From Enoplolaimus lenunculus (Eukaryota): a stretch of 64,000 bases of DNA. This document shows positions 4,601 through 51,807 of this stretch, in pieces (the first letter of the stretch is position 1; every line of letters starts with the position of its first letter). The stretch lies in NCBI GenBank assembly GCA_030248215.1, contig JASANG010002214.1, forward strand, positions 62,001 through 126,000, in the 5' to 3' direction. Both the position numbers and the translations under genes were made by a program. The notes beneath the pieces were generated by a model. That model made no database searches and had not been told where the DNA came from. It saw only the letters and a list, made by a program, of their open reading frames with translations.

Positions 4601-7600
4601 TGTACCCAATACACTGATGCCAGAGTCGATATTTCTAAATGACAAACAAATACGTACAAAAAGTGAAAAATTAACAATTTTTATAGTAAACTGTTGTGGA
4701 ACGATATTCATAGAACGCAAATCAGATCAGCCCTAAGCAATTTTACACATTGCGATATAAACGTCGCAATTGCATTAATCACTTTCCTATTGCTTGTTTG
4801 ATGTAGTAGTTATAGTGCAACACCTGGATATCACGGTGTCAGTTACTAAAATGCCAACGTTCCATAGTGTTCTGTTCAATGAGACTAAAGTCAGGTCTCA
4901 CTGTAATGATCGGCATATGCAACGAGCAAATTACAGAGTACCAAGTTATCGTGCATATGATGTAGTTTCTAGCTAGAATGGTGATTAAACAATGTGCAAA
5001 AAAATTTAATTAGGTAATATGCTTAACTGAAATAAAAAATTTGTCTAGACCCTACAGATTGTATTGCTGTAATATTTTAGAATTAGTTTGAAAAAATTGC
5101 ACTAGGTTGTTCAAATTTCCCGTCCCTTGAACAATTTTTCGTTTAATTAAAGCGCTACAATTAACCACAACATTAGTTTAGCAAAAACAAACCAAAAACA
5201 CTGAACCACAGCTTAAACAACTGCTTACAATTCCGCATCCATGGATTCAAATTCACTTGAAAAGTTAGAACGAACCATTACCAACGACAGTTTCGGAATA
5301 AACGTGAAAGTGATAGAAATACGTTCCTGAGAGTAATCTAAACAATAAAAATTCAGTCTTTAATCTAAGGCATAATACTGGTTGCAGATATAATAGAGGC
5401 TTTCATTTGCTGTAACAAAGGGAAGAGTTCAATTTGTCACGTAACATATGCAATTTAGTTACACTAATCACTCACAGTGAATTATGAGCTTAAGCGCAAC
5501 AATCGGTTTGTTACAAAACTTATTTCCAGTGTCGTGTCATAGTTTTCCAGTGATAGTTCTTTCCTGCCATTTTCGTCATTACGTTTACAAAATTTTTTCC
5601 GCATACCATATTCTCTTTATATTTTCCATATATGATCCCAAACTCAGTTGAAATCCTGGGATCTGGAAAATAATACTTTTTTGATTTTAGCCACGGAAAA
5701 CATTGATATCTTTGAAGTTTTATTCTACTCACCCAGCCCACAAAGGTCTTTTACAAAATAAATATTGGTATATTTCGCGGAGCTTCGACAAACGTAATAA
5801 CATTTAATGAATCTCGTGGATAATTGTATGATTAAGCTGTCTCTATTGCACTAGTTAGAAGCACGCAAAGACAAACTAAACCAACGCAGATTCACTAAGA
5901 TAACGCTTATATTTATTATCCAAAAATCAATTAGTAATCAGTGTCATTATGGGTTCCGTCAACGTCACGCTTTCAAACCGAGTACTAAGAACTAAAATAC
6001 ATAAAAACAACCGTCTTGGAATAAATTGTTCTTTCTGCGCTCTATTATCATTCTCAGCCTCAGGAAACTATTTTAAGGGCTACGAGTTAAAGAAGTGCTT
6101 TAGCGATAAAACTAAAGTTCAGTAACTTAAAAATACACAAGTTAACTTCGGATGTCAGGATACGAAAAAATGTTAGATACTAATCATTTGTTTTAATAGA
6201 CTAAATAAGCTGTACTGTAGTATCACGCTAAAATCCGGCTCGGGTTCCGGTAGAAAGCGCACTATCCGCTTTTGGTCCGACCAAAATCTGGAACTAAAAA
6301 TTTCCTCAATTCTCATCTATACTCATCAGTAGAAAACTAACTTAAAAGAACACATAATAATCAACCAAAATTTACCAGGACAATTCACTGTATAAACAAC
6401 CATCAAAGAGCACGGTTTCAGTATATCAACTAAACTGTGCGTCTTTTTTGCTCGGCGTCTATGATCCACCTAAAGCGATCAAAAATCAAGAATAAACATT
6501 TCTATTCCATTTCAATAACACATTCAACTAAAAGTAATGCTTAAATTTTCATTATGCTGCAAAGGCTATTACATCCCACATGCGTCTAAAACAATAGCCA
6601 CGTGTTTGAAACAGCGCCCCTTTCCCTTTTACAAATCTTACTGGTATTTATTATTTGCAAACTTAGTTACTTCAAGTCCCTGGGAATCATTATCCAATTC
6701 AAGCTCTTCTGCATCAGAGTCTTCGCTGTCCTCGTCTGAAATATAATGAAAAACTGCACGCTGCGCGATTGACGTATAAAAATATAAACCTCCCTCTCAT
6801 AAGAATAAAATTAACTACAGCAAACGACATCAAGACATGAACAGAAACTGCAATCATATAAAATATATATTTAAAAACATAGTATAAACACATACTAATA
6901 CGATGTTGAAGGGAAGGAACTTATGCCTTAACGTTACAGAAATGGGAATAAAGCATAGACTGAAACAGCCTTCCAATCGGCATTGGTTAGCGAAATGCCA
7001 GAAATCCTGCTATTACACCGACAAAAAACCAAGAACGTGAAAAACCTAGAGGATTACGATGCAATAATAGTTTTGCAAAAGTTACCTTTATTGTTATCGT
7101 GTGCACACGAATCGTCAATTTCGCCCACTATCTTCAAAGCTAACCGGTGCGCTGCAATGAAAATAACACAAAAGTACGCATAATAAACCAAGCGCGTACA
7201 CAAGCAATACACCCTACATACTACATGCAACCTAGGTGTACACCAGTTGGTTCACTAAGTTCTCATCCAAAAGTTGCTGTACGTCTACAAGCTATTAATT
7301 CAGCTCAAAAGCTTTAGTAGCGAAAAACCAACCCAAAAAGTAATAAAACTATTACATTACTAGTTTATTACATGTCTACAGGATTTTTTAAAAATCACAC
7401 AAGAAGTATCGCGTTTGTTAGATGGTGATAAGATTTTATAAAAACACATGTATCAAACTGAGCTTCAAAAAATGCACAACAACAAATCTATTATTCTTTA
7501 CAATCAACAACCGAATAGGCACGAGCCCTTGAGTACAATTGATGCAAAGGGTTTGGCAATGCTAACGCCAGCTTTCTTTGTTCGTACTCTTTTTCGTAAT

Positions 7601-10600
7601 TAACCTCGAGCAAGTCTTGAACCGGCGCTGCTGCCTAAAATTAATTTAACCGTATTTATATAGAAAGGTATCGATAGATAAATTTGGTTTCTGAGCGTCG
7701 TAACAGAATGTATATCACTGTTTTACGGCTTTGATTTATAGACCTATTCTGAGCTACCAAAATTTGTGATTCTTTTTCTGGAGCAAAATGGCTGAAAAAA
7801 TTATCGTGGATTGCACGAAAAACGTTAATTACGTTTTGAAAAATTTCGATAATATATACATATATTAGTCAAAACAAACTCTGTTGTGTATTATACCTGT
7901 GAAATTTTATTCAACTGCGGTTTAACTTTTGACAGCGTTGCCTGCCGTTCACATATTTCAGACATGAGTTTATCCAAAACATCTTCTTCGCATTTGAGCT
8001 GCTGAGCCAGTCTGTAAGTAACAATTCGGTTCAAGTTAATGATAAAAGTATATCATCAGAGTGACCAGACAAGCTTTAACTTTAGGTTACTGTTAAAATT
8101 ATACCATTACTTAGTTATGTCTATACTCAGGATGTCACTGCAAACGAATACCAAAGTATATAGCAAAACCATAACTAGACAGAACTTACGTTTTGCGTGT
8201 TTCTAATTCCCACGTAAGTCTGTTGAGCCTGACTGCGTGTGGATCATTGGCCTAAAATGCGTGCATAAACGTCAAATATTTTTACTGAAACAGCAGTTTA
8301 TTGTTAATTTTGCAAAATCGAGCAATCATTCAAACAGTTGTCACAATGCTACGTTAACCATACTACAGATCGTGCTCTGACTTAAACCATACACATGCAT
8401 ATCTTATTAATCACAATTAACATCCGGGTGTCTTAATGTGTATCATCCAAACGAAACGTTCGCATGCGGCTATGTATAATTTGCTGTCAAAAGCACTGTC
8501 GTTAGGACACTCAATACGGTGTTTATATTCACCTTTAAGCTATTGCATAAACGAATAAAGTGTCTACGAAAACACAATCAATCGGCGCTGTAATTAGAGG
8601 AACCACTAACATAATATGGTTTAAAATTCGACCTACCCTTTGCGTTAAGGACGAAGGCGCATGCTGTTGAAACTCTGTTAATGGAACCAATGCAATTTCT
8701 TCATGTTCAGATCTAAATACAGGATCAGAACAAAACTAACAGGACATTACATTTGCTACGTTAAAATATTTACGTTATGTAGCAATAGGCATCTCACTAC
8801 ATGGGCTGTAATACTACGTAATTTACGTGATAACAATACACTTTACACTATCGCTACAGTACACTAATAAATGTCTTGCTACCCACAGGTGACATAGTTT
8901 ATGATGATGCATTTTGAACTGAAATAGAAACATAAATCGCAAAGAATACTATCTATCACTATGCTATGCAATGCAAACTAACCGATACTCCAAACACTTG
9001 ACGATCGCTTTTTGGTTATGAAGAATTTCGTAAAGCAAATTTTGCAACTTTAGATGCTTTGATTCTATATCCTGTCGCTTCTGAAACAATTACAACATAC
9101 AACAATATACAACTGTTTATAGTGCTAAACCAGAAATCATTGAATAACAACAATTAGCTTTCAACGATTACATCACATATAAAACGTATGGAACCGATAT
9201 CGAAAAAATAGAATAGTGTAGTGAATTCAGTCAGTGAGGAACCAGAAGTACAACAAACAAAGAAAAACACTGCGTTATAAATTTTTGTTTATACGCAACG
9301 TCAGCTTACATGTACGTATGTACCTGGCCTGGGTGCGATCATATATTACAAGAACGGAAGCCGGACAGGAATAGTAGCATAATACCCATCGTCTTAACCA
9401 GGGATGAGCGGTCTTGGTTAAAACCGAGAGCTGCCTACCGAGACCGGCCAAGAAAAGTTTGGTTCTCGGTCCATTTTAGGTCATCACCAAAAAAATAAAA
9501 TTTTCAAAATTACCAGTCCCAGTGCTTTTTCTTTACTTTTTCAGAGATTATTGCGTAACTGTGAAATTTCATTTCATAGCAAAATTATATTTATCAACAA
9601 TTATTTACTTAAACAATTCGTCTTCTGGTCTCGTTTCTAAACCACCGAGACTCAAAAACGCGAGACCGGGAAACCAAGACCTATCAAATACCGAGACTTG
9701 TCGAGACCAAGACTCCCACCCTCTGGCCTCGGTTCTAAACCACCGAGACTCAAAAAAGCAATACCAAGACCTGCCAAATTCCGAGACTTACCGAGACCGA
9801 GACTTCCACCCATCCCTGGTTATTACAATTATGCCACTAAATAATAGTGTAATACAGAGTTATTGCTTACTCTTTAGCGATAAATATACATTAACCTATA
9901 TATAATACCATATCCGGATGTTGTTTTCTACCGGAACCGGATATGCGGTCGCATCTTGGTACATACCTGAGCAACTGAATCTCTAATCAGCTTGTTCCGA
10001 AACATTGCCAGACGGTTAATGCGCTTCAAATAGAGGACATCTTTGATGAACGATTCTTTTGCCGTCAATGCACCTGACTGCTGTAATATTCCAAGATTCA
10101 CATGTAGCACAACATCAAAGGATGGCACCAATCCGTATCCGTTGCTAATTTGCATGTTGTAAATTTCAGAAACGATATGTCAGCCGAATCACTGTTAAAC
10201 ATTAATATATTTCGTGCCCGATCTCAGTTCTGAGATTTGTGACTTGAAACAAAAAAATATTGGTTTATGTAATAAGTTACTTAAAATTTTCACAAGTTTA
10301 TTCGTTGCATAAATTGGGTAAGGAATTGTTCATATTTTATATGTGTGGTAAAAAGTTAAATTTTACAGGGCCATCATTTTTGAACCAAGTGCCCTGCAGC
10401 ACTAAATACGATACCCCTAAACACAGCCTGTCGAGATCTATAATATAAACTCTAGGTGAAATGATCATGAACTGAAGAGTATGTCGACTGGTACAAAAAC
10501 AAAAGCTGCAACGTGTTTAATTGCAAATTATTAGAAACTTTTAGGCGGGTAAGTTTAAGGCGAATACCGCAAATTGAACTGCTATAATTTCTTGGTTTAT

Positions 10601-12009: not shown

Positions 12010-15000
12010 ATGGCAATGCCTATTTCCAGAACGACAAAAGTAGTATCATTAGTACGGCAACTAGGCACTGCTGCACAGGCAGCAACTCCTACCGGGAACA
12101 CAAGTAAGCTATGTTGTTGATTTTATGTTTCTCATATTTGGATGGCAGTGTTGACTCTAAGCCTGTGAGACATGCTTGTTCGTTATGCGCGCATGCTATA
12201 TAGTACAGTGCATTGCATAGTATGCTTGCTGGCGAAATACGGTCGACATTTTGCTGACCATGGAAGCAGAGTGACTAGCGGACTGTGTGGCGCAGTGGTA
12301 GAGTTTTTGTTTATATAAAGAGCCGTACGCTAAGATCTCGATCCTCGCACATGTGTTGACTTGGTACAGTTTTAAATATTTCCTCAGATCAAGTGCTTTT
12401 TCAGAGCCCTCCCTGAAAAAACAAAATGTTTCAAATATTGTTATTGTTGATGGTGTTCGAACGCCGTTTTTGCAGTCCGGTACCGAATACAAAAACATGC
12501 AAGCACATGATTTGCTAAAATCAGCTTTCGTGTAAGTTATTTAAATTTTCCGAGTTTTTATTACCACTATCTATGTTGGCATATAATGAAACAATGTTCA
12601 TATTAACGAATTGTGCTATTACTACAATTTGTACACAGCAATATTCCGCAAACTGGCAGATATTGCATAATTCTTGAGCGAAGAGAGACTGTGAGTGAAG
12701 CTGAGAATCTCGTGAAGCGTTTTATGTGTTGTGCTCAGGGGTCGAAAGGTGGACTTCCGTCAGTCAGTCTCTCAGTTCGATGATAATCAAAGAAACCGCT
12801 GAACCGATTTTCATAAAGTTTTTGGTTTGAAAACTTATTTTCCTCAGTTGTTAACGTCGCATTGGGGTTTTAAAATTCCTAGCCGTTAATAAGTGCTGGC
12901 TAATGTGCATAACTGGCAAAGCCTTAATCAGGTTTTTTTTGCTTTATTTCTCTAATTTCTAGGGTTACAAGCGATCTGATTTCAGCTCAAAGGGTATTTG
13001 GGCGCGAGGAATCTGAATAAAATGTCTATAAATTTCTAAATCAGATAAGTGTATAAACTGTTTTCTGGTACCGTGCGTGGCAAGGTATGGTTCCGGATCC
13101 GGGGCCCGGCCCGAGACATTTCTAGTCGGTGTATATGTAACACTTTTTTTCGCACGGTTTCGGATGAGAAACACTTAAATATAAACTTTCTGTAGTTGCA
13201 AACTAGTAGGATTATATTGCCAGTAAGTGGGTGTGAACTTAGCTGAATATGTGTAGCCCCACAGCGACTGATTTATTCCGAAATCGAGTTATACCGAATA
13301 AGTTTGAAATGTGTACGTGCACCAGAAAACTTTGCCACGGTTTACGAGAAGTGTGGCGAAAAAGTTATCCGGGAAGTATTAGAGAAAATACACTCAGGCA
13401 TTGAATTTTTGTTGGAGTCGACTTCTGATCTCGGTTCCAACCCACCGAAATTGAAAAAAAACCGAAACCGAGACTTACCGACACCAAGGTTGCCGCTTGC
13501 GTTCTTTCTGTGTACGTCTGTACGGATCTATCCAGTAGCGCAAAAATTTGTGATGAACGTACTTTACCTCAACCTACGTTTCATCGTTTAAAATCTGCAA
13601 AATGTAGATAATTTTGGGGTTTGCGCGGTGGGAAAAATGGCTGTAGGTCAACTGGGGGACTTGAGCGTGGCTGGCGCCTCCTCACCCTGCTAGAAAAGCG
13701 TCAGATAGAGTTTGTTTTTGTTTTCGCAGTGGCTTGCTACATCGAACAGAAGTTCCTGTAAAAGAAGTCGACTATGTCGTTGCAGGAACAGTGATTCAAG
13801 AAGTTAAAACTGCAAATGTAGCGCGAGAGGTACGTACGTGGAATGAAACGTGTGAGGTGTATATGTCGCTGGATGTAAAGCATATATAGGGTTTGCTGCG
13901 TGGGGTAGAGTTGGCCCGGCGCCGTTGACAGTACCGACCGGGTCCAAGTTAGAACACGCAAAGATAACTATCAACTTATCAACATGAGCTACGATATATG
14001 TAATAAGTATATGGTGGCTAACGGCCTAAGAGTCGGAAAATGAACAAGCTATATATTGGGTGTAGTGTGTACAGAAAACCCTTCGAAAAAATACCGTGTA
14101 CTGTAATTCCTTGTCATTTTCATATTTTTCAAACGGGAACCGAGTAGGATTGGTTTTCATGCAAATTAATTAAGGATAGTTTTTCATGCAAGTGAATTAA
14201 GGATTGTACATAAAACTGGACCTGGTTAGGCCCGGCTAACAACGTGCTGGGGCCAGTGCCTTAGACCTCCGGACATCTCTACTAAGGAAATCAGCCAGTC
14301 GATTTGCTCCATCTTCCAGCCCCTACCTAAATTTTGCCTCCATTTGAATATTTTTAAGCTTTAAAAATTAACAATTTTTGAGCGTTTAACAAACTTTTTG
14401 TATAATTTTCAGCTATCAAGGGGTGGGTGAATAAATATGTAAAGTGTGTTTAAAGGTTTACGAGCCATGAGGCATGGTTAGATGGGATTTATGTGAAAAC
14501 CAGTAATATTTCGCAAGCGCGATGTTGCGATTACAGCAGCACTATTGCATCACACCGTGGGTTTCTTCGGTGCGTGATGTGCCTGAATTGTATGTTTTAT
14601 ATTTTATGCTTCAATGCTCGCTGGCATTCCAGTTCAAACTCCATGTCATACGGTTACGCTGGCTTGCATATCTTCGAATGTTGCCATTACCAACTGTATG
14701 TTAATTAAAGTGCGTAATTATATATCCTGCTTTCAAAATGGTGTTAAAAAATTTCTAAGGTATCAGCATAAAGGAAGCAAATAGAGTTGTTTGATTATAT
14801 GGTAAGAAAAAGTGAAAAAGTTTTTGTAGCAAAAATAATGCATTTTAGGATGTGTTTAACTGAAAAAGTCAGTTAGCTAGAAATGAGAGTGAGATTTTGC
14901 GTTGGTCCTTCTCTGCCTCTATTCAACGCTTTAGGTATTGGTATGCTTGCCGCTGGACAGTGCGACGTTGCTATAGCGGGCGGTGTTGAGACAATGAGCG

Positions 15001-18000
15001 ACGTACCAATCAGATTTAGCCGAAAGTTACGACAAACCATGCTCAGCATGAACAAAGCGAAATCAGTTGGCGCTCGCCTTGGTTTAATGACAAATTTTTT
15101 CGTTCCAAAAAATCTCATGCCTGAGGTGCGTTTTATAATTGTGTCTGTGATTGGTGGGCTTACGCTTGGTTTCGTTTTTTATATGTTATATATGTTTAAT
15201 TCGCAAATCATGCTTTATTGTTATTGTTTGGCATTTAGCATCATTAAGAACATTTCTTTTTATGACACATGAGTTAAACATTATAGTTACCTGGAGTTAC
15301 GGAATTTTCAACAAATGAAACAATGGGATCGTCTGGAGACCGTTTGGCAGCACAGTTTGGCGTAACACGTAAAGAACAGGTACGTATATTTTTGTATTGA
15401 AACACATGTTAGCCCTAAATTTTATCGCTTTATTATTCGATCTAAATATATATGTTGTATCTATAAGCGTTGAATCTTAAACATTTATGAAACATTAGCT
15501 GGATTTCGAAAACCCTACTAAAGTACGACTTCATATTAATATTTGCTAAGTAAATACTCAACAAACTGATCGTTTGTGAAACTGATGCCACTACCCAAAT
15601 TTAATAAATTGCAGAGTAATAGTTTTGGCATACTATTCTTGCTTCAATTGACATTGTAGACTTATGGAACCTCTTTAGTATAAAATATATCTACGGCTTA
15701 CTTGTTATGAAACTGGTCTATAATTTGCAATTCTTGTTTATGTCCAAAAAGTTAAGTATTTACTTAAGTCAATGACTTAAGTAAATACTTAAACAAAACT
15801 TTAGTAATTACTTAAGTTTTAGAAACCCAGCAAATGCTATAGATAACGTTCTCTATGAACAATTTTTTCAGGATGAGTTTGCGCTTCGGAGCCATACGTT
15901 TGCACAACAAGCATACGACGCTGGCAATTTGAAGGACTTAATTCCGGTGTACGTGCCAGGTAATTTTGTTTTGTCATTTTTCTTTCCGGCATCCAGCGTT
16001 TACTGGTAGATCCAGAAATTTCTTACCGGGCGCGCGCAATATACTACGAAAGTGCAAGGGAAAAGCGTAACGTGTTTATTATTAAATCTCAATAGAAATA
16101 TTTAGTTTTAGGTGCATCCATTTGGACAAGAATATGTCAAAATTACAATTTGCTATGTGTTAGCTGGATTTCAGAACAAAAGTTCGAAGCTATTACTGGA
16201 TCGGTTTGAAACAATTGTTAAATTTCAGGACGAGATACTGCGGTGTTGAAAGACAACGGCGTTCGAGTGACTCCAATGGATAAACTCTCCAAGCTAAAAC
16301 CAGCGTTTGTTAAGCCACACGGGACTGTTACACCAGCAAATTCATCCTTTTTGGTAGGTATTTTTGTATGAGCCTAGCGACTGAAAGCACCTTGGGATTC
16401 TTCAGATCGGTTTCAAATTTGTTGGCTTTTTGTTTTTTCATCTTTATGTTTATAAAAATTGTTGAGCAATAGATTTAATGTCGTTATATGAGCCACGTTG
16501 ATAGTTTTTAACAAAAAATTTTATTTGGTAACCATTTTAACGCTTGTTCAGACTGATGGTGCATCAGCATGCTTGCTTATGACCGAAGAAAAGGCGAAAC
16601 AGTTGGGTTACAAACCGCTTGCCTATTTGCGAGATTTTGTTTACGTTGCGCAAGATCCAAAAGACCAGTTGTTGCTTGGGTATGTATAATATAAAGTAGT
16701 TTTTTATCCTGTTGAAGAAATTCTCATGTATGGATAGCAAATTACTTACAGTGTATTACAGAAGGTAAGATGTGACGGGAAAAATTCAGCCGCCACTGGT
16801 ATGAGATTAAAATAAGCTGGATGTGGTGAAATATTTGGGGCGTTTACGTGTATTGTTGGTATGTAATTTTGTTTATTTATTATTTAGTGTACTCATGTAA
16901 TTTGACTAAGATAACTGAGCATAATCTTTCAGTGTCTATCTTGTTGCGAGGCACCTTCACAAAACTGCTGGATTTATGATTTTATGTATATAAACGTGGA
17001 GGTTTAATTAAGTTAAGTATTTTTTACTTTTACTGCAATTTCTAACTTTAACATTGACAGACCTGCGTACGCGACTCCTAAAGTCCTGGAAAAAGCTGGT
17101 CTGAAGTTGTCGGACATTGATGTTTTTGAGTATCACGAAGCATTTGCGGTATGTTCAACGGTTGTTTCTAAATTAATTTGCTACAACTTTATGTGTATTA
17201 TGTAGCTTAGGGGTTGATTTTGAGTGTAATATTTCATAGCAGATAGACTTCTCGACCAGTTTATGTAAGTTTGTGCCTATGATGTGTAACCTTATTAGTC
17301 TTTAATTCCCCAGTATCCTCATTTTCTAATGGACAGGCCCTATAATTAACATGGGTCAGTTCTCATAAGTTTTACTTGCGAGCATTGTTATACAGGGACA
17401 ACTTTTGGCAGTGATTAAAGCCATGGACTCGGACGCGTTCGCTAAAAACTACATGGGGCGAACAAACAAGGTCAGTTCAATAAAAAGCTGTGTTAGTCAT
17501 GTTTCATAATACCATAATCCTGGTCGTTTTAAGAGTGACCGATACAGTGAATATATAACTTTAAATCGATTTTTGGTTCGAGTGCGATCGAAAAGTTTGA
17601 GAGCGTTGTGGTCGCGATACGGTATTTGTAGATTGCAGAGCGAATCTATGTTCCTCGAATGCCAGACTAATTATGTTGTATATTGAAACCGGTTCTGAAT
17701 GCGATGAGTTTGTACATTGCATTTCATAATTTTCTAAATATTATGAAAAGTCTTGGAATAAGTAGTTTATTTTCGCAGGCAATATTGCTACCATCAGCGT
17801 TTTATAATATTCTATTGACGACATTACAGGTTGGTCTCATTCCAATGGAAAAGCTGAATTTATGGGGCGGATCTGTATCAATCGGACACCCTTTTGGAGC
17901 AACAGGAGTTCGTTTGTGCATGCATGCTGCTCATCGATTGCACAAAGAGAATGGGCAGTTTGCATTGGTTGCAGCGTGTGCTGCTGGAGGACACGGTCAT

Positions 18001-18027
18001 GGTATTATTATTGAACGTTGCCCGTAA
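12010..18027 (+). CDS. HADHB: Mitochondrial trifunctional enzyme beta subunit (3-ketoacyl-CoA thiolase), 12 exons
   Basis: Exons at about 12010-12103, 12405-12531, 13730-13829, 14608-14694, 14935-15126, 15287-15379, 15872-15959, 16229-16353, 16552-16679, 17061-17148, 17396-17470, 17830-18027. Motifs: [39 protein letters not shown] (catalytic Cys), [31 protein letters not shown]. Confidence 0.96.
12158..12350 (+). mobile_element. Degenerate solo LTR related to the 21042 element, in HADHB intron 1
   Basis: TAAGCCTGTGAGACATGCTTGT, GTCGACA and GCGGACTGTGTGGCGCAGTGGTAGAGT match the 21042 LTR in order and approximate spacing; the B box is decayed. Confidence 0.7.
12674..13070 (+). mobile_element. 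HINE-like copy in HADHB intron 2
   Basis: TTGAGCGAAG start, GGGGTCGAAAGGTGGA, GCTGAACCGATTTT, CATTGGGGTTTTAAAATT. Confidence 0.78.
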
Positions 18028-21000
18028 TGATGAAGAATTAAAAAAATTACAAACATCATTGCAATGATATGTAGTTGATTTATGCTTGCTTGAATAATTT
18101 AGAAGCGGTCTGAAAACAACAAACTTGAATTTGTCGGCGGTGTCTGGTTGATATAACATTATAGAACTTCGTGTTGCAATGCCACCGAACTTTTTATGCA
18201 TTAGGTAAGGCATAACTACTTAACTGCGAATGAAACAGAACTACAGAGATCTAACCATATGAAGTGAATGAAAAACGTATTTTTCAAACGGCATCCGAAC
18301 ACAAAATATTTTAGACTGCACTTCGCGCTTGCTAAAACGCTAAGTATTTTGGTATGCAGGCTCGATGTCCGTTTCCGTTAGAGATCACCAGAAATTTCTG
18401 TATGTTTTAAGCTCATACACATGCAGCTGTTCCATTACAAATGTACAACGAAATTGATTCATTATCTGAAATTGAGAGCTTTTGGGTATTTGTTAACAAT
18501 CTTAAAACTATGATTCGTAACAGCAGAGAGTTGCATTTTTTGTATGCTTTTTCATGTATTTCGATAAAGCAATTTCAAAAAATTATAGGGTTAATTTTGA
18601 ATGACAGATTTGGAATTAAACCACCAAGGAATTTTCTGAGAACGAAATTATCCTTTGTGTTGTTATAGTTACATTAATTTATTGTTATTTTATAGAGTAA
18701 AAATAACGTCTGCTTTTGTGCTCGAAATGCATTCTATGATTTTTATATACTTTAAGCTCGAAATGCATTCTATGATTTTTCTATACTTTAAAATGAATCA
18801 AAATGTTGTTTCTGATTCGATTTATTAGGTTGTTCCTTTCTGGTCGTTTCACCAGATGTCGCAAGCATTCAATTCTTGTATTCCAAAACATGCGTGTCTT
18901 CATTACAACGAGGATGGCTTGAAGTTCACAATAAGGTTAACATTAATTTTTTAATAATATAGCGGAGAATCCAAACAAATTTGTATATATATCAGAGGGT
19001 GCAAGCGGAGATGAACAAGTGTCCTTTCGAAAATTGCCTGATTTAGAATCAGAAATTTAAAACAAATGCACATCACCGCAATACACTAAACTAACGCCTT
19101 CAAATCGGCTGTTCTGTACATCAGGGTTGGAACCTTCCCTGTTTTTGGGCTCGGGCCCGGATCCGCGGATTTTATATAGATTTTAGCAGAAAACTAAACT
19201 ATTTTTCATATTTCACTAAATATTGTTCAGTGCACCTTCCGTCGGAGGTTCCGGAGGCACAGAAGCTCCAACGACGTACGGATGCAAAAGGTTGTAAGTC
19301 TAGCTTACTACGTTACCACCTTCACTAAAATGTCACCGAGATTTGCCCGTATTAGCTTGTATAACGTGCACTCGTATAGCGAGCTTTGATATAAAAATCG
19401 CACTGTGTTTTCTGACCAGTAATTAAACAGATTTCTTGAAGTACCAGCAGAAATATGTGCAGTTCAATATTACCAACAAGGTCGCTTGCTACAGTGGACT
19501 ATAAAAATTTTCACACCGCACAGTGCAAATGACTGCGATTTAAGGATAAAAAAGCGTTCGAATATATGCAGTGAGGCGACGTATACTAAGCCGTATTCTT
19601 ATTAGAAAAGGGTAGAAGAACGGAAGTCAAAGGCGTAGCCAGAGGGTTTCAGGTGTTTTAAGCCCATTTTTGATTTTTTTGCAGGTTTTTACGACTCGAG
19701 GATTTCATAAGCTAGAGATTCTTTTTGTTCAAAACTTTAAAAGCGGCGACTTCTTAGTCGCTTGTGTGCAACGTTGATAAAAATTGCCTACCCGGACTAC
19801 TAAACTGGCATTCAACGTGGACGCCGTGAGCGAAGCTATTGAAATCTGTGTCGACCGATAGAGAAACCTCCGCAGTCATACTCTAACGGGACGTCCCTCA
19901 CAACAGTCGCCAACGACGCAATACATTGGGCCCAATCCTGAGCGACTGTCTATTAACTTGGCTCATATATACATTTTCAATTTCTCCTTTCAGTTCTGAT
20001 AAACGAATTAAATTCCAACTATATATAAATGGCAAAGTGCTGCGCATACAAGTCTTGGTAAAGCAATAGGCATATAGCGATTGCGGGCATGTAGGTGTTA
20101 GGTTTTAGCGAGGGTCAAAGAGAACTATTAACCCTATTGTGTGGCGGTTTTTGCTTTTGTCGAAAGTGGCCCCCCATGGATCCGCCATTGAGGCCCACTC
20201 CGTGCCTACTGGATTCTCCACTGCTCCGATTTATTGAAATACGAAAAGGCTATGCGTTTTACAGTAGATCCACAATAAAATCTGAACACAATTTTTTGTT
20301 GTAGAAATTTTATTCTCGCGGAAGCAATTTTGGTGACCCATTTAAGCTGGAACACAGTCTCTATTCTCAGTGCTATTCTGATATATAGCAGCACTGAGAA
20401 AATCACATATATGGAGGAGCAAGCCGAATTCTTTGTATGTTTTAGAGAACAATTTTATTTCATTAAACAGTGTCGGTTTGAGGGTGTATGTATTTAAAAA
20501 CAGTACACTTGGGCAATCAACGGTTGCAACCGAGAGTAATAGTTTTCCTAATGTTACTGTCTTTATTTGCATTTTGTGACTTTAAAATTTCTACGGACGA
20601 TAATTTTTCTGTAAACTTTATAGCTAGGCTTAGTGTTATTTTTTCAATGCAGTAATTTCGTAGCTAGTTTGTTGGGTTTGTCAGCGTCAAATGAGTACCG
20701 CGCGTGCTTTGCCTGTTGCAAGGGTTGCAGCGGAAATCCTGCAAAAATGGATTTTTGTTACGGCATTGCATAACGCAGGAACCAGAATTTTACGATAATG
20801 TTCCAAATCATTTTTGCCTCAAAAGTGTTATTGGTGGAACCAGGGTGGCGCCGAATACACGATTTGACCGAATCCGAATTTGAACCTAGAATATCTATGA
20901 TTTGTTTTTTGCGTCGGCGGGCAAACAGAGGTCTCTGAGATTTTTGCTGCAGTTTAAACCGGCTGGAGAACTTTTATTTGATAAATCTTTTTGTGATTCT

Positions 21001-21041
21001 GTGTCCGCGATTGTTTCCAAATAATTTCTTCCAATATGTGT

Positions 21042-21618
21042 TGTAAGCATGTGAGACATGCTTGTCCTAGTGCATATGCAGTAAAATGCAATGCACATTG
21101 TGTTGTACAGTCGACACATATAGTCGACGAAGCATGCAGTTGGAGAGGCGGGCTGCGTGGCGCAGTGGTAGAGTGCTCGCTTAAGGTTCCATAGGCTAAG
21201 AGTTCGATTCCCGCTCTAGCCCGCTTTTCCAGCTGCTTAGAAAGGTCTGATGTCCCGGTTCCTACCTAGACTGACATGGGGGCTACTCCGTGGACGCAAT
21301 GGCAAACTGCCGCGCTATGAACACGGTATCCAGTCGAAAATAGGATGGACGGTCAAGGGACGACCTTGTTGAAAAAAAGGCCATGTAAGCATGTGAGACA
21401 TGCTTGTCCTAGTGCATATGCAGTAAAATGCAATGCACATTGTGTTGTACAGTCGACACATATAGTCGACGAAGCATGCAGTTGGAGAGGCGGGCTGCGT
21501 AGCGCAGTGGTAGAGTGTTCGTTTAAGGATCCGTAGGCTGAGAGTTCGATTCCCGCTCTAGCCCGCTTTTCCAGCTGCTTAGAAAGGTCTGATGTCCCGG
21601 TTCCTACCTAGACTGACA
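21042..21618 (+). mobile_element. Non-autonomous miniature LTR retrotransposon (TRIM) with tRNA-like sequence in each LTR
   Basis: Two 235-bp direct repeats (21042-21276, 21384-21618), each TGTAAG...CTGACA. 5-bp TSD TGTGT at 21037 and 21619. PBS-like TGGGGGCT right after the 5' LTR, purine tract GAAAAAAAGG before the 3' LTR, 107-bp non-coding core. Confidence 0.92.
21148..21228 (+). ncRNA. tRNA-like Pol III unit inside the 5' LTR (second copy 21490-21570); not a canonical tRNA
   Basis: A box TGGCGCAGTGG, B box GTTCGATTCC, closing stem GCGGGCT/AGCCCGC, followed by TTTT. No proper anticodon arm. Confidence 0.7.
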
Positions 21619-21623
21619 TGTGT

Positions 21624-21839
21624 TATGTTGGTCCGAACTAGTCAAAACAGTTCAGCGCGGCTGGATTTGAACCAGCGGTCTTTTCTAAACCGGCAATGCT
21701 CTTACCAACTTTCAACTGAACTGTCGCGTCACGTCTTCAAATACGGACTTGTGTGGGCGTTATATGTGTTGTTTACCAGAATACTACGCTGTGTACTGTT
21801 TAGGTACTGTGCAGTGTGTATCATGTGTTGACTTTTACA
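21624..21839 (-). mobile_element. Probable solo LTR of a second tRNA-bearing TRIM family
   Basis: The minus strand begins TGTAAAAG. About 110 nt later a tRNA-like unit follows: stem ACAGTTCAG/CTGAACTGT, A-box-like AGTTGGTA, B box GGTTCAAATCC, then TTTT. TGTGT lies on both sides (21619, 21840). Confidence 0.6.
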
Positions 21840-22183: not shown

Positions 22184-25100
22184 ATGGCAGCACTCGATCT
22201 CATTCAAGATTGGAGGTGCACTCCGTTTTCATTCGATAACTGCGCAAGGTTCGACTAAATTATATATAATAATTTGCAGTTGTTTAGATGTTTTAAATCC
22301 GCTTTAAATTTCGCAAGATCTAGAATATATGTAAATTGTTCTGTAATTATTATTGGGCTTAGAATTTAAATTTTTGCGACATTATACCCGAAAAAAAGAA
22401 TCACACTAGTAAAAAAAGTAAAAATATTGCAGTGTGCTGTTAGAAAGCGGATTTATCGCACTGCTGTATGTTCCGCAGAACCAAACTTACGGAATGCTCT
22501 GTTCAGTAGAACTTTTCTTCGTAAAGCAAAGTAAATGTGTTTCGATTTGTGCGTTATATACAAATCTTTACGTACCGTGTAAGATCCAAAACTAATTTGA
22601 AATGAGAATGAGAATATTCATACTGTTTCATTTTTCATAGTAAAGTGGTCCAGCTGCGCCTTGAGTATCTAACATGCGAGCTATGACGTTGTTCAAAGCT
22701 AATGCAATATTCACCGTTTTATCATATTTTGATTTAATTAGAAATGCCACGCTGGAAAACCTTGGTATGAAACAGCCCGTTATGACGAAGACTGGAACTA
22801 CAATAGTCGGCCTTGTTTTTAAGGTATGTCAACACATGTTTGTTTATTGCCCTGTGTATAGGAATGAAATATAGTTTGTTTGCCATATTGATGACTTGGT
22901 AGGTATATATTTAGTTGAGAAAACGCTAGAATAAGTTAAAGAAGTGATTTGCAAAAAACGGTAACTAGAAATTTATTTTCAGTTCGATGGAAAGTACATA
23001 TAAAGCTCTGACAGGCTATTTGCAGGACGGTGTTGTTGTTGGGGCTGATTCTCGAGCAACTTCAGGACCAATTGTTGCAGACAAATCGTGCAATAAACTG
23101 CACAAAATTACAAACAATATATAGTATGTTGATTTTTTGATTCCTTTTTGAACATTTTAGTATCAAACGAACATTATATAGGAAAGTTAGATTTTCTTGT
23201 ACGAGTTTGTTGCTTAGCATTTTATTTGAAGACAGGAGTGCCGTCAAGCCCAGGTGTTTGATGCATCAAAGCCATGTTGCGACTTTAGTCCAAGGGTCGT
23301 ATGTATATTTTCAGTAACTGATAACGCAAAAAACCTCGCCTCAAAATTTTCATAACATATAACCCCTTTCCAAAATCTTAGGTACGTTCTTGTTATCATA
23401 TGACCGCCAGTTAATACGTTTGATTATACATTTTTAATAGGGACAAATTTTTGTATGCTAATATTTTGCCTTTTGGCAAACATATTAGTTGGGTAGTCTA
23501 CCATGTCTCACTCATCGTTTACCGCCTTTCAGTTTCTTTGTTTTGCTAAAAGATACTACATGTTGAAATAACTTTGTATGGCTAAGCAGATAGCATCTTT
23601 GTGTTGGTATAATTTTAGTGCATGCGGTGCTGGAACTGCTGCTGATTTGGATCAAGTTACAAGAATGTTATCAGCGAATATGAAACTATTGGAGTTGAAT
23701 ACAAATCGCAAGCCACGTGTTATTGCGTGCCAACGTATGGCTCGGCAGCATCTGTTTAGGCAAGCCATATTTTTTGTTTAATGTGGTATTTGAGTCATAT
23801 TGCTTTGTTTTTCGGTTACCAAAATTTTTCTTGCACAAATTATGACAAATATGCCAACGTTGCCATACATGATACAGTTCTTCGTTAATCAGTCTATTAA
23901 AACATTCCAAGCTTATAAAGGACATCTGGACAGTTTGACCCATTTAATCTACAGTTAAACTGCTATGCAATATATTAGGGATGTGCCGATTAATCGGCAT
24001 TCGGCATTGGTAATAATTGCTACTTTTCGAGAGTATCGGCATCGGTACCAGCACTTCAAAAAAATTGCGGATTCTTTGCCGATATTTTTTGCATATCACA
24101 GGCAGTTTGAATGCTATCCATTTCATTTCTGGGCGCACACGAGTGTGTATGTTCAGCAAAATTGTTCTCTCTTGCCTTTGTGTTTGAAAACCTATTTGAA
24201 ATTAAACGTTCTTATAAAATTATAATCGTTTATGATGGTTAGGGTTTAAGCCTTCATATAATAATGTAATGTAGTATTCTATAGCGAACTATTCAATAAT
24301 CGGCTTTGGAGGTTTATACACAATTTATTCAGATTTCTGATACCCAGAAACGCTCCAGTAACCCTAATATAAGCGATATAACTTAAAAACTCCTGATTTT
24401 ATGCTTATTAGTTAAGCTACTATGCACATTAGTTATTATTCAACTGTTCAGTTATCGGTTTTGAAAGTTTGTTAACAATTTATCCGGAGTCCTCGCGCCA
24501 AAAAAACCATCCAGTCCTGAAATTAGATCGCTTGTATTGTAACCCAAATCATCAATGAAATAATTTAAAAAGTCCTAATTGAGGCTTAACCAATTAAGGT
24601 TATATGCAAATTAGTTACCTACTAACTAACTATTCATTTATCGGTTGTGGAGGGTAAAAACAACTGTTTTAGATTTATCGTACCCAAAAAATTTTAGTGC
24701 TGAAATTAGATTACTTGTAATTCTAATAATTTGTGAAATTTGAAGAAAGTCGTAATTTAGGCCTAACCAATTAATGCGAGGTTATCACCCAAGGATAATA
24801 AGTTTTCAAACAAAAAAGTTTATCGAAATCGGTTCTGCTGTTCCTGAGGTTCTTTTCGGAAGGACAGACGGACGGACGTCCACTTTCGACCCCCGAGTAC
24901 AAAACATAAAACGCTTCGCGAAACTCGTAACTTCGATCGGAGTTTCGCATCGCTGAAAAATGCAGCCGCACCGGATACTAAGCGACGTCGGGTACTGAAG
25001 CTGGTTGTTGAGTTTTCTTTAAACATCTGATATCGGGAATGTATAATGTGTAAATATAGCATACGTTCCATAAGCGTATTCATATATCACATGTCTTTCC

Positions 25101-28765: not shown

Positions 28766-30384
28766 ATGTGTATCAAAACGGTTGCAACGAAGCTAATTTC
28801 GTTCGACGCAACGAACACCCTGCTTCTGTTTCGACAACCAGGTGCACAAACTTATCTTGAACACGGCAAACATTTGAATGGTTTGATTCCAGCGAAGATT
28901 GCAGAATCATTCCGCGACGCGTATACTGATTACAGCGAAAAGTATCCGTGTTTTGGATACGGACAGTTTGGTGCGCAGGAATGGTGGTTACGGGTCGCCA
29001 GGCAGACGTACATTAGCGCTGGCGGTGAGCTTTGAAAATTCGGCCAATGTAAAGAACAGGGGCTAATCAGTAATATATAAGCATAATTGCTAAGCCTAAG
29101 CGGAACAATGAGCTTACGCTTAAGCCTAAGCAAAAACTTAGTCTAAACGTTAAGTTTACTTTATTCCAGCCCAACAGAAAAACAATCCACCCGTGATCTT
29201 TATAATGGGCCGAAAATTGGAACTGGATGATTTGTCAGTGTGTCTTGGTAATATTCATTGACCAATAAAATTGGATTGAAGGAACCAACAGAGGTACAAA
29301 CGACTAAACTAAAACTATATTTGATTTTTGACAACTTTGGTAAACTGTCAACGATGATTTGAGGCACAATGTATTTAGTTCTTTACTTAACAGAAAAAAT
29401 TTAGAAAGCAAACTTTTGCAGCGCTCGTATTTATTTCTAATTAAACGGTAGCCGTTTAAGTCCAAACCTAATCCTTGTCTAGCAGGGTACAATCGGACGT
29501 CTGCTTCCGGCTCCGGCAGAAAATCGGCCTCCGGCTCCGGCCCGGAGGTTCCGGCAGTTTCGGTAGTAAAATTTTGCATAATTTTGCAAAATTTATCTGT
29601 TTAGCGCGTATCGTTTTACTTCTGTCACAATTTTCAGGAAAGAATTTCCGAAATTTCGCAGGAAATTAGCGTAAAACCAAACAGCTTAACATGTTGCAGA
29701 TATTGCCTAAAATTAACTAATTAACCGTCATTTTTACTACCTAATTTCACCTCGCCTCCGGCTCCGGCAAGTTTCGTTGACCTTCGGCTCCGGCATTTTT
29801 CACCTCCGGTTGCACCCTGTTGTCTAGTTGGGGCGAAATCTGAAAATTTCGAAACCGGTGCAGGGTGTAAGTATAAAAGCCAAACTCTTAATCATACATT
29901 CGCTGTGTTTCTAGTTGCCGTCGACGATCCAGGTCTTCAATGTACCGTAGAACAGGTCTATGAGCATTTTAACACTACTCAACCGTGGCAGATTCACAAG
30001 TCTGCTCGCGCGTTGCTCACGCAACTCACAAAGACTCGACACAAAATCGTTATCGCGTCAAATTTCGATCCGCGGTTGTATAATTTGTTTCGTTTGTTCA
30101 AAATTGATCATTATTTTGACGCAATTTTTCTGTCGAGTCTTATTGGTGTTCAAAAACCGGACCAACGATTTTTCCAAACGATATTTGATCGATTTCCTCA
30201 GCTGGAACCGTCAGAAATGGTTCACGTCGGCGACTCGTACGAAAACGACTATTTGGGTGCTACAGCGACTGGTATGAAAGCGTTGTTGTTTGTTCCACAG
30301 TGTAAAATGTGCGAATTGACTGAAGATGTAAGAAAAACGGCGGAAATTGTTAATGATTTGGCGGAAATCGTTGCGAAAATATGA
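28766..30384 (+). CDS. HDHD3: HAD-superfamily hydrolase, HDHD3/REG-2-like (exons 28766-29024 and 29915-30384)
   Basis: HAD motifs LISFDATNTLL, ASNFDPRL, QKPD, HVGDSYENDYLGA. The phase-1 GT-AG intron joins ORFs 28766 and 29905 in frame. Confidence 0.88.
29042..29211. mobile_element. GGCC-ended TTAGGC MITE
   Basis: GGCCAATGTAAAG ... ATGGGCC ends; TSD GAAAATTC/GAAAATTG. Confidence 0.82.
29483..29819 (-). mobile_element. hAT-type MITE, family A, in the HDHD3 intron
   Basis: Reverse complement of 1245-1576; CAGGGT...ACCCTG ends; perfect 8-bp TSD TTGTCTAG. Confidence 0.92.
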
Positions 30385-35312: not shown

Positions 35313-38300
35313 ATGGAGATTTTGATAACAGACAAAGATTTGGTTATTTCCGACGGCGAATACGAATTGTGTTGCTCGAGAAAAACTGGTCGATTATATG
35401 TTCCCGAAAGTAAGTCGTTATGTAATCGTTTGGTGATTAGCGTGAGAATTGCACGGTCAGGACGACTCATTTCACCGATGCACTGCGAATATACTTGGTT
35501 CTTAATTCCTCCACAAGATATGGCCACGCCGGGAATGAAACCTGAGACCTCTTACTCGCGAATCAAACGCCCCACCAATTACACCGTGCGACAGGTATTA
35601 TAATTTTGTCAAGTGCTATAACATATGTACGTGTATCCATGTGTTTTAACATTACAAGCACTATTCTTTAACCTAAGGGTTGCGTTATACTTGACGTTCA
35701 TCACTGTGCGTCATCCATACGGCGCTTTCCGTCCCGTGCGTCACCCGTATGGCACCGTCCGTCACCCGTACGGCACCGTCCGTCACCCGTACATCACCGT
35801 CCGTCACCCGTACATCACCGTCCGTCACCCGTACATCACCGTCCGTCACCCGTACGGCACCGGCCGTCACCGTCCGTCACCCGTACGGCGCCGTTCATCA
35901 CCGTACGGCGCTGTCCGTCACCCGTACGGCGCCGTCAGTCACTCGTACAGCGCCGTCTGTCACCGTCCACCACCGTCCGTCACCATTCGTTATCGTACGT
36001 ATTGGTGACGGATGGCGCTGCATGGTGACGGGCGGCGCCGCACGGGACGAACGGCGGGTGACAGACGGCACCGCACGTGTGACGGACGGCGCCATACTGG
36101 TGACGGACATCGCCGGACGGTACCGTGCGGGTGACGGACGGTGCCGGACGGCACCGCACGTCAAAAAAAGTGTAGCGCAACCCTAAACGTTTATGTAAGC
36201 CGAATCGCAGCCTTACCGTTTATGTGTGGGGAAATTTTTCTGGAAGAGCTTAAAACTCATTGCACAGTCAGTTTAATGTAGTTTATCCTTGGCTAACTTG
36301 CTATTAAATATAATAGTAATTAATTAGCAAATTGGACTAGGCCAATTAGTGCTATAGCAGTTCGGCCTAGGACATGTATATTTTGTTATTTCAATTGTCT
36401 CACATGTATTTAAGTTAAGACACCAAGCCAAAGTGACTTTTATAATGTAAAAACTACAAATTTATGTCGTAACCCGAATTATTTAAGTGATAATAAGATT
36501 TACACGTATAATGGTTTTTTGCCAATTTGTCAATAAAAGTTTTAGATCGAGTAGATTTCTCGGACTTGAAAGCAACATGTATGGGATGCGTTCAAAGCGT
36601 CATTGGCTGTTTGCATTTGGATAAATCCGTATTCTTATTACTCGTAGCTAGACAAGCAGCTGTTGGTATTCACCCGTTTTCCAAAGCCGAGGTACTCCGA
36701 TTTTCAGTTTCTGCGGGGTAAACTTTTGTTTAGATGATATGATTTCTATTGATTGTTATTAGTAGAGGGGCAAGAGTATTTCCAAAGGGGCAGTTTAAAA
36801 TCTTCTGACATGCAATGCTTTTAACGCAATCTCTTGAATTTACCGCTGTGGGTAGTTAATATGTCAGTAGTTAGCGTTGGCAGTGAGCCAAACCTGAGTA
36901 TTCGTAGCTCTTAAAACTCGTCGCTCCATATTTCACGTTGCCCTGATCAGCATAAATGAAACGTGTTGGTGCTGTAAAAATTTAATTGTTATACTAAAAG
37001 TTTCTTATTTTTTTATGTATGTATCTTTGTTTTGTTCTCTTCTCAGGGACGAGATAAGTTGTCGTTGTCGTTTGACGACCATCAAATCGTTATTTAATTC
37101 GAAGTATTTTATCATTTTGGAGCCTTGAAAACTTTAAACCGATACTGTAAAACACCGATATACAGAGTCCGGTACGAATACTACAAGCAACTGCCTCACA
37201 AATGAAAATAAGATATTAATTGTCCAGGTTCTCTGTTATTAGCCTGCGCGCAGCCGTCCTATGATAGTTTTCATCGCAATTATTTCTGTTTAGCTCAAAT
37301 CATCTGAGATTGAGAATATAGTATATATTTAAAGCACCGGTAACTTTATCTTTTCAAAGATACATTAACGGCTGCCCTGATTTTACCAATACCGAAATAT
37401 TGGTCCATCGCTAATTCAATACCGGCCAACGAGTGGAATTGTTAATTAATGGTTTTACATTCGAGACTACTGTTTTAGATTTGGAAAATTGAACAAGTCG
37501 TTGCACTAAATGTTACCAATTTAGACCCTAGCATAACAACATACTCAAATCTCAATAGCAGTCATCCACTGTGGAACGTGTTTTCGCCATGTCCAACGCA
37601 TTCTATCAATGGTGCTGCTGGCAACTACGGCACATCTACCATTTCAGCAGGTGAGGACGCAGCTGTATTTGCACTCGGTCAACAAAAATTGTTGGTGTCA
37701 CCAGTTGCCGCAGCATCAGCTCTTCAGGTTGGACACCGAAAGGTGCTTAAATCAACTGTCGATGGATTTAAGTACATGTCCGGTCACATAGCCAGCGGAT
37801 TTAAACGACCTGGGAGTAGTGCCAGTCAACCACAGCAGATTGGTTCGCCAACCGAAGGATTTGACGACGTTGTATCGCCAATGGGTAATGCTGATTCGAC
37901 AATGACGGTTACCCTGGAAGATGGGAATCTTCGCTGCGTCTCGCCAAATTTTCTAACCCCGGATTACAATACGACTTGTAGCGGGGATCACTGTGCGGCA
38001 AGCTTTGCCGATCATTCTCTAGTTTCAACGCCTAAATCTCCGTCGAATGAAGCTTTGCCACAGCCGCCAGATCAGTCAAGCAGCGAAGATGAACGTATTC
38101 TAGACGAAGTGTTGAGGATATTCAACGAAAATGGTGCGTTTTACTATTGTACTCCTGACGATAAATTTCGATTGACCCGGTCGGTTCAAAATAGCATTGT
38201 AACTGAACGCAATTTAGCGACTGGAAATTGTGTGTTGACTTTGCCGTCATCACAAGATGCAGCTGCCTCTGGCTCGATTAAAAACAATTCGTGCGCAATT

Positions 38301-50665: not shown

Positions 50666-51807
50666 CAACGTGTAGGTGGCTGTGCCACACTTAAACCTTT
50701 TTCAAATTAAAACTAAAATATAAAATAAAACCAAACATCAAAACCACACCTTAACGGAGTCCCTGGCTCCACCTAGTCTCTCTTAGAACTCAAGTTAGGC
50801 TTAGGCGTTGCTACAAGGCGTAAAAATTGTTAAATCGATGCTATGGCGGCTGTGTCCGCAATGTAAACTTACCTGGGCCCTGCGTGGCCGTGAACTATCT
50901 GTTGAATATTATTGCGTATACTGTTGGCTATTTTTGCGATTAACGACATAGCTAGGCTATGTCAGCACCAAAATGGTGCTTTATGAGTGGCTCGAAAATA
51001 ACGTTATTGTTGTTGTTGTTGTTGTAGTGTGTTGTGGAAGGAAGTGACACCGGGTGTGTGGCTCTGGACCTCAACCGCATAGCGGACACCCAATTGTGAG
51101 TGTCGGCGAAATGCAAATGAGGTCGAGATGCAAACAAGGGTAGCCAGGACCGGAATCATCATTCTTGGAGAGCTAGTGAACAGTGGTGTAATTTGTATCG
51201 ATCTAAACTACAGAGTGTTACAGTTTTTATTGTGTTTCTAACGTATCGGGCGTTTTGACGGCAAGTGAACCTTGGGTAAGTAGGATCGAACGGATTTAGT
51301 TTAAGTATTGTCACGGTGGCAGGCATGTGAAGGAAACCACGGTGCATAGGTTTAATCGGCATTGCGCAAGGCGCAGGATTTACCCAGTATAGAATACTGG
51401 TGTCATGTGTTAAAGGGGAAACTTGGGAATTACCGGAGAACCTGGGAAAAGTAGTCTAATAAATCTAACGGGGTTAGATTTATTATTCTACAACGGCTTG
51501 GCCAAATCTAATGGGGTTAGATTGGTCGGAAATTTGGTGTAACTCTAACGGGGTTAGAGTGCACGGTTTAACAGGGTGTAATTCTAACGGGGTTAGAATT
51601 GCACGGATTCTGGAAAACGGCAAAAATATTGGTAACGTTAAAGCCAGTGGCTGGATTAAACCAGATTCAGGCGTCGGCTTTAAGGATTCCGGTTCGGGTT
51701 GCCAGTTAAATTGCATAACCTGTAATTTGCTGGTATTGCATATTGGATATTTGGTGTCATACGGGTTTCGGGTTGGGATTTTTAATAAACATTTACCGGC
51801 CGCGTTT
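50666..51807 (+). mobile_element. Hairpin-rich dispersed element of unknown class, copy 1
   Basis: Colinear, end-to-end homology with the reverse complement of 59998-61243. No coding capacity, TIR or TSD seen. Confidence 0.75.

Follow-up and report, generated by a model that had tools for sequence, protein, structure and literature searches.

A Helenus-type TRIM with a tRNA-like unit in its LTRs, in the genome of a likely nematode

The locus at positions 21037-21623 of the window, by which we refer to the whole stretch of 64,000 nucleotides that was analysed, contains the same tRNA-like sequence twice at close distance, which raises the question of whether it is a pair of SINEs, a remnant of tRNA genes or an LTR element that carries a putative polymerase III (Pol III) promoter in its repeats. 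Our analysis describes a 577-bp LTR element, in which two 235-bp LTRs with TG..CA ends enclose a core of 107 bp and which is flanked by a TSD. It is best explained as a TRIM of the Helenus type, and we assign a probability of roughly 75% to this explanation as a whole, which combines the anatomy, the fixed ends found in many copies, the best primer fit to tRNA-Pro and the minority variants shared by the U3 parts of both LTRs with a cycle of Pol III transcription, priming and dependence on a helper that we infer. A sequence-only reading of the same DNA had proposed TG..CA LTRs of 235 bp, a 107-bp core and the 5-bp TSD TGTGT, all of which hold upon re-derivation of their coordinates. The parts of the element are listed below.

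21037..21041, plus strand: left TSD, 5 bp, TGTGT, read from the sequence
21042..21276, plus strand: 5' LTR, 235 bp, TG..CA, defined by self-comparison and by unrelated flanks behind 21276 in contigs
21042..21147, plus strand: U3-like part with three predicted hairpins, the same letters in both LTRs
21136..21155, plus strand: upstream arm of a 20-bp stem (copy in the 3' LTR at 21478-21497), from a stem search
21151..21222, plus strand: tRNA-like module, 72 nt, in the Rfam register carried over from the 3' copy and with a pair table
21158-21168 and 21201-21211, plus strand: A box and B box within the tRNA-like module of the 5' LTR
21217..21236, plus strand: downstream arm of the 20-bp stem, including the T4 run 21225-21228, from a stem search
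21277..21294, plus strand: PBS of the tRNA-Pro type, with no spacer behind the 5' LTR, from pairing to tRNA ends
21277..21383, plus strand: non-coding core, 107 bp, the order LTR-core-LTR being seen in diverged single contigs
21371..21380, plus strand: purine tract and PPT candidate with 10 purines, 3 nt upstream of the 3' LTR
21384..21618, plus strand: 3' LTR, 235 bp, with its module at 21493-21564 and T4 at 21567-21570
21619..21623, plus strand: right TSD, 5 bp, TGTGT

The core opens with TGGGGGCT immediately behind the terminal CA of the 5' LTR. The TSD, which was read directly at this one locus, is 5 bp long, lengths of 4 or 6 bp do not fit, and the frequency of TGTGT in the window is 0.0014. 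The U3-like part at 21042..21147 folds with a z of -3.0, a stability that is equalled by 2 of 200 shuffles. Coding capacity is absent in the sense that there is no long frame, which is what remains of the literal claim of 'no ORF', given a longest stop-to-stop frame of 84 codons and a longest ATG frame of 63, and no retroelement domain was detected in the eight frames of the window that were scanned (7 of the 15 frames with at least 120 codons and one thiolase exon). Within the element, plus-strand runs of at least four T are found only at 21225-28 and 21567-70, just behind the two tRNA-like units, where a TTTT had been noted before. In other respects the initial description is amended by our analysis. 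The closing stem, to which 7 bp had been attributed, measures 20 bp (21136-21155 with 21217-21236). The A box and the B box are both present but imperfect, the former beginning with TRGCG and not TRGCY, the latter with AGTTC and not GGTTC as in the motifs of Helenus. The proposed purine tract exists at 21371-21380, but in the family, where about 99% of the contig depth carries a T at 21376, the PPT is short, interrupted and weak.

Other copies of the element were surveyed in three public DNA runs in the form of contigs, which originate from two samples of one study, possibly with the source of the assembly among them, with 3,865 to 9,119 contigs per run on the 1.5-kb region. In the three runs, 130, 171 and 172 contigs leave the LTR behind the CA at 21276 into unrelated flanks, whose agreement amounts to 0.35-0.37, compared to 22-44 contigs that end loose at neighbouring positions. 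Loose ends were also counted at the left end of the element (74 and 79) and behind 21618 (70, 101 and 107). The earlier reading had named SINE-like, variably truncated copies as the observation that would speak against it; instead, other copies stop sharply at the same CA, which reflects fixed ends as for the product of an integrase and not ragged ones. Single contigs with 22-28 other letters span the LTR-core-LTR order and constitute diverged copies, and the contigs across the junctions of this locus extend only 26 and 28 letters into the LTR, under the bar of 31 letters that defines a bridge. An exact search of metagenome contigs for the 22-base LTR/PBS junction returned 0 matches. The summed contig depth over the element, which is not a copy number, ranges from about 1e4 to 3.6e5 compared to 9-52 on the right flank and points to a very large family. 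Beside the LTR, the majority letters are A-T-C-A/G-C on the right; on the left, the T at 21041 is preceded by G-T-G-A. At an agreement of 0.35-0.38, with other rows such as those behind 21618 differing, they provide a weak hint at a palindromic target of 5 bp, which they fit better than one of 4 bp.

The same data bear on the proposal that the locus is a SINE dimer, a tandem duplication or an assembly artefact, for which the tRNA-like character of the unit and the abundance of tandem and dispersed repeats in the window could be quoted. We consider such an origin exceedingly improbable in light of the TG..CA ends, the PBS, the TSD and the sharp ends of the family, of the same LTR-core-LTR order in other contigs and of the location of the tRNA-like part in the middle of the repeat and not at its 5' end. 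A tRNA-derived SINE (SINE2) is ruled out by the internal unit, the fixed ends, the LTRs and the PBS. An old relative of the LTR was also found in the window:

12158..12348, plus strand: old 3'-truncated LTR relative with an identity of about 67%, which retains U3 and the module as far as the B box

This relative, which was detected by blastn with an E of 8e-10, is located about 40 bp upstream of the first thiolase exon as defined by tblastn. It lies between 9-bp direct repeats (12140-12365), which are also readable as a 5-bp TSD with one change, and it shares with the main element the same six letters behind the terminal CA.

A history of the insertion is contained in the differences between its LTRs. 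The two repeats differ at 6 sites (5 transitions and 1 transversion, K2P 0.026), all of which fall within 21159-21198 and consequently inside the unit, with the other 195 LTR positions being identical; in a test performed after the cluster was seen, the chance of this clustering was 6e-4 when the span is considered and 8e-4 for a location of all six sites inside the unit. At 5 of the 6 sites the other letter is found in family contigs, among the rows listed. The differences are likely the result of a swap between family members, either by gene conversion or by mixed-template reverse transcription, which fits better than point mutation, and the insertion would in this case likely be younger than a divergence of 2.6% suggests. 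A likely young insertion is equally indicated by the 195 identical positions. If the unit were to correspond to R, its confinement of the differences would also be expected from mixed-template reverse transcription, as far as can be inferred from one locus. At six paired sites (21069/21411, 21081/21423, 21109/21451, 21132/21474, 21133/21475 and 21209/21551), both LTRs carry a letter that is absent from most of the family contig depth, as expected if they were copied from one template.

The unit itself has diverged considerably from a tRNA. Its 3' copy (21493-21564) matches model positions 1-71 of the Rfam tRNA family with 23 bits (E 0.029-0.07), which falls under the gathering score of 29 bits. 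The outer acceptor pairs 1-5 hold, and the remainder of the cloverleaf is broken, with 2 of 5 pairs in the anticodon stem and 2-3 of 5 in the T stem (2 of 5 in the copy of the 5' LTR). A functional tRNA gene is ruled out by this defective cloverleaf and by ARAGORN, which finds 0 tRNA genes in the whole window. The bare unit is no more stable than its shuffles (z -0.5 and -0.1) and becomes stabler only with its flanking arms. These properties lead to the alternative of an ordinary TRIM transcribed by polymerase II, whose LTRs would contain a passive remnant of a tRNA or SINE with idle boxes and an idle TTTT. It is consistent with the imperfect boxes, with the sub-threshold tRNA score and with the first TTTT, which would end a Pol III transcript early. 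We nevertheless regard this alternative as unlikely since the 67%-identical relative retains the A box region exactly and most of the B box while its anticodon arm decays, and since the sole T4 runs directly follow the units.

The preferred reading of a Pol III-transcribed element of the Helenus type gains a structural aspect from the stem enclosing the unit. Its 20 bp consist of 16 Watson-Crick and 4 G-U pairs with no A-C, a length that was reached in 1 of 300 shuffles, and the longest stem on the minus strand has 8 pairs. The fold of this region is stabilized on the plus strand (z -3.6) and not distinctly so on the minus strand (z -0.5). The TTTT lies within the stem, whose first position is about 12 nt upstream of the likely transcript start. 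An RNA that extends from about 21148 to 21570 would contain only two complete arms, the downstream one in the 5' LTR and the upstream one in the 3' LTR, and their long-range pairing is predicted with a probability of 0.85-1.0 for three choices of the start site. Both ends of the predicted transcript are paired as well in the fold, the PBS is partly paired, and the z of -5.5 for the whole transcript is inflated by the repeat. According to the folding energies, the putative stem would hold both ends of the RNA against each other. It would resemble the super-hairpin modelled for Cassandra in PMC7215508 and, in its role, the pairing of CYC5 and CYC3 that is required for the cyclization of the Ty1 genome, as described in PMC7969010. 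The main-text description of Helenus does not contain a flanking stem, although in the LTRs of some bivalves shorter ones can be made out by eye (PMC10886601), and inverted repeats around the unit may be general among Helenus.

These features suggest the following cycle. Pol III would start near 21148-21151, pass the first TTTT, in which the T4 at 21225-21228 would likely act as a leaky terminator, and stop at the second (21567-70), resulting in an RNA of about 420 nt with the tRNA-like unit as its repeated R region. Over 20 bp, positions 21217-36 (downstream arm, 5' LTR) would pair with 21478-97 (upstream arm, 3' LTR), and the 5' end of the RNA, being freed, would bind to its 3' end, which would set the two copies of R side by side for the first strand transfer. 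A helper element would package the RNA, tRNA-Pro would anneal at the PBS, the short purine tract would prime the plus strand and an integrase with a 5-bp stagger would insert the copy. The points that we count against this explanation are the imperfect boxes, the Rfam score under its threshold, the weak PPT of the family and the required read-through of the first TTTT, yet in some family contigs this run is extended to T5 or T6.

The assignment of the primer follows from the pairing of the PBS, which had been described as tRNA-Pro-like from its first letters and is found to be so when compared to tRNA-Pro of other eukaryotes. In a set of genes of such eukaryotes from metagenome loci, 9 of 63 distinct genes with a Pro pattern form 8 contiguous pairs and the best fit comprises 15 Watson-Crick pairs and 1 G-U pair of 18. 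The second observation named by the earlier reading as contrary to it, a PBS to which no host tRNA is complementary, is therefore not borne out as judged by tRNA-Pro of other eukaryotes. None of the 31 other tRNAs on the same metagenome loci shows more than 5 contiguous pairs. The same 8-base start of the PBS has been called tRNA-Pro for Gypsy-13_CGi and for Helenus-1_TeGr, which thus also has a tRNA-Pro PBS (PMC10886601, Fig. S2).

A further match to the PBS is found in the element itself. The 3' end of the unit with an added CCA pairs with 9 contiguous bases of the PBS, one more than any of the 63 tRNA-Pro ends, and with the family-majority letters at 21155 and 21287, positions 1-7 of the unit equal positions 5-11 of the PBS. 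It is conceivable in this respect that RNAs which stop at the first TTTT are trimmed, receive a CCA and prime the element's own PBS. Besides these matches, the intact outer acceptor pairs 1-5 would be in line with a self-supplied primer, and the absence of such complementarity in any Helenus, a descriptive and not a definitional statement (PMC10886601, section 3.6), sets the 9 contiguous pairs apart. Combined with the stem, the proposal would be that a self-made CCA-ended mimic of tRNA-Pro primes a read-through genomic RNA that is closed by the 20-bp pairing from LTR to LTR, and if this were true, a nematode TRIM would obtain its primer as well as its genome from one leaky terminator. We find the self-supplied primer quite improbable and place similarly little trust in the combined scheme. 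During plus-strand synthesis the PBS is recopied from the primer, and the match should thus reach 18 nt, whereas the end of the unit provides 13 Watson-Crick pairs and 1 G-U pair of 18 compared to 15 and 1 for tRNA-Pro. The duplex is also weaker, with -22.3 vs -30.1 kcal/mol for tRNA-Pro, the cloverleaf is broken, and the majority letters of loose ends (agreement 0.5-0.6) suggest that the ninth pair is missing from other subfamilies whose PBS is unchanged. A phrase search of the literature for an element encoding its own primer found nothing.

The match between unit and PBS would find a different explanation in a descent of the unit from tRNA-Pro. The unit might be a decayed copy of the primer tRNA-Pro, acquired in the particle through template switching, as opposed to a SINE inserted into the LTR, a scenario that concerns the origin only and is compatible with the preferred reading of the element. 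We view it as possible, if still doubtful. Its acceptor signature, defined by the first four and last five letters, is found in 11 of 68 tRNA-Pro and in 0 of 30 other tRNAs, at positions that lay outside the search pattern, and the unit of the 5' LTR is closest to tRNA-Pro (46/66 identical vs at most 39/66 for others). A motif derived from the unit, which was searched in about 1,600 metagenome stretches, returned at least 133 loci with 144 matches, 137 of which were called tRNA-Pro by ARAGORN and 0 as another isotype, with 5 uncalled and 2 at the edge of a locus, but the fixed positions of this motif were chosen with knowledge of tRNA-Pro and the Pro set is biased in this respect. For the unit of the 3' LTR, identities are tied at 41/66 between Pro, Lys and Cys, and it aligns best to tRNA-Cys (67.5 vs a mean of 53.6 for Pro). 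The D arm departs from that of eukaryotic tRNA-Pro, and this reading is weakened by the comparison of segments, in which 5 of 101 distinct tRNAs were dropped after the earlier removal of one with odd letters. Finally, bivalve and Lingula Helenus with other primers display, as judged by eye, a similar D arm and start of the anticodon stem. A search of viral contigs with the motif from the unit returned 0 matches. One metagenome contig (loci L050, L051 and L052) contained eleven matches to the tRNA-Pro motif within about 6 kb and harbours either an array of tRNA-Pro genes or tRNA-derived repeats.

The identity of the host was approached from three genes in the window.

12389-18024, plus strand: HADHB thiolase, 11 exon pieces
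29725-30384, plus strand: HAD hydrolase
35313-46790, plus strand: SAC2/INPP5F, with a long first SAC exon

In a first tree of the thiolase, the host is sister to Plectus (96/94), the only named nematode in the tree. In a second tree, for which 33 rows were selected from the hits, its sister is Romanomermis (92/84, not starred), and the host and 12 nematodes are set apart from the other 21 rows by a branch with 93/82. The best hits of SAC2 show 34-47% identity, with no named nematode among the 120 matches listed. From the sequence of one gene, the thiolase, the host is likely a non-chromadorean nematode.

The TRIM is located about 3 kb downstream of the thiolase in a region with several other repeats. 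A second tRNA-like sequence on the minus strand (21655-21730) faces the TRIM with a perfect B box, A-box-like letters upstream and a match of its T arm to Rfam of 14.6 bits (E 6); its contig depth is modestly raised and it is possibly an old SINE head beside or under the insertion. Shortly before the element lies an unrelated, short high-copy repeat (20804-20905), which reaches a summed depth of 3,000-37,000 and shows many loose contig ends at 20841 and 20879. More distant parts of the window contain a tandem array whose period is about 153 bp and whose copies are 97-99% identical (257-1027), a pair of 1.1-kb inverted repeats with 80% identity (50666-51773 and 60177-61243), a family of dispersed repeats that contain tandem units of about 170 bp (41036-42100, 24282-24960 and 12671-13051) and a minisatellite of units of about 21 bp with an inverted copy, which gives rise to repetitive open frames (35622-36186).

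By its published definition the element is a Helenus/TRIMp3 (PMC10886601) and its kind has already been described. The definition covers the non-autonomous LTR element with a tRNA-type module that had been deduced from the letters, and the tRNA-carrying TRIM to which the earlier reading had referred as Helenus is the subject of Kojima 2024 (PMC10886601). Of the suggestion of a possibly new nematode family, the nematode host receives moderate support from one gene tree, whereas the kind of element is not new. Among the properties of a TRIM, we find a length under 1000 bp (577), two LTRs with TG..CA ends, a TSD within 4-6 bp, absent coding capacity, a PBS at the 5' end of the core and dispersed copies with fixed ends, the latter in two samples of one study. 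Specific to Helenus is the presence, within the LTRs, of a tRNA-derived sequence that has an A box and a B box; the element possesses it, with boxes that deviate from the usual TRGCY and GGTTC. Helenus and the element have in common the two LTRs with such a unit followed by a T run, a PBS, a PPT, which in the element is a candidate tract, the lack of coding capacity, a multi-copy nature and a size within the range of 311-1263 bp (Kojima 2024, PMC10886601). They differ in that the TSD of animal Helenus is 4 bp in 113 of 115 families, 2 being undetermined and none having the 5 bp observed here, and in that Table 1 and Table S1 of the same study list no nematode, to which the present host likely belongs. 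Three LTR motifs of the element had 0 hits in the file of Helenus consensus sequences, so no listed Helenus family is a near copy.

Relationships to other systems are more partial. The nemertean TRIM Ajax shares the animal host, a Pol III-type promoter and the 5-bp TSD but differs in its 5S-derived promoter and its tRNA-Leu primer (PMC10886601). Cassandra, as described in PMC7215508, shares a Pol III promoter and terminator in each LTR, a transcription from LTR to LTR and a predicted super-hairpin. It differs by its 5S-derived sequence, which agrees with the earlier reading's statement on the LTRs of this plant TRIM, by its plant hosts, by a PBS of the tRNA-Met type and by a transcription that has been demonstrated, whereas that of the element is inferred. 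A literature search for a tRNA-bearing nematode TRIM, judged by titles and the beginnings of abstracts, found none; TRIMs as such have been annotated in Meloidogyne (PMC8685519), and a 2026 plant paper, in the part of its text at hand, cites Helenus with no further hosts (PMC13570524).

The 5-bp TSD narrows the lineage of the helper only loosely. It could be a BEL/Pao element, a Gypsy lineage with a 5-bp TSD or Copia, and the 4-bp Gypsy put forward for the other animal Helenus is an improbable one. In Drosophila, TSDs are 4 bp for Gypsy and 5 bp for Pao, and the BEL/Pao elements 3S18, Max and roo of this insect, which are autonomous, combine the 5-bp TSD with a palindromic target motif (PMC3276498). 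According to PMC8220671, most intact LTR elements of one annelid have a 5-bp TSD. Cer1, a Gypsy/Ty3 element of Caenorhabditis and a candidate for the type of helper, shares the tRNA-Pro PBS flush with the 5' LTR and differs in being autonomous (PMC3315495); the length of its TSD was not found in a literature search.

If the 5-bp TSD and the host assignment hold, TRIMs with a Pol III promoter would have arisen once more, in nematodes and with a helper of a different lineage from that of the animal Helenus described so far. A Pol III transcript has been validated only for Cassandra, and how the polymerase would pass the terminator in one LTR and stop at that of the other has not been worked out for Helenus (PMC10886601). 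The element makes this question testable, in that the stem across the TTTT and the differences confined to the unit predict the ends of the RNA, covariation and the extent of R. The match between unit and PBS similarly offers a test of the capture of a primer tRNA as origin of the promoter. Families of this kind inflate the counts of tRNAs and SINEs in the annotation of genomes.
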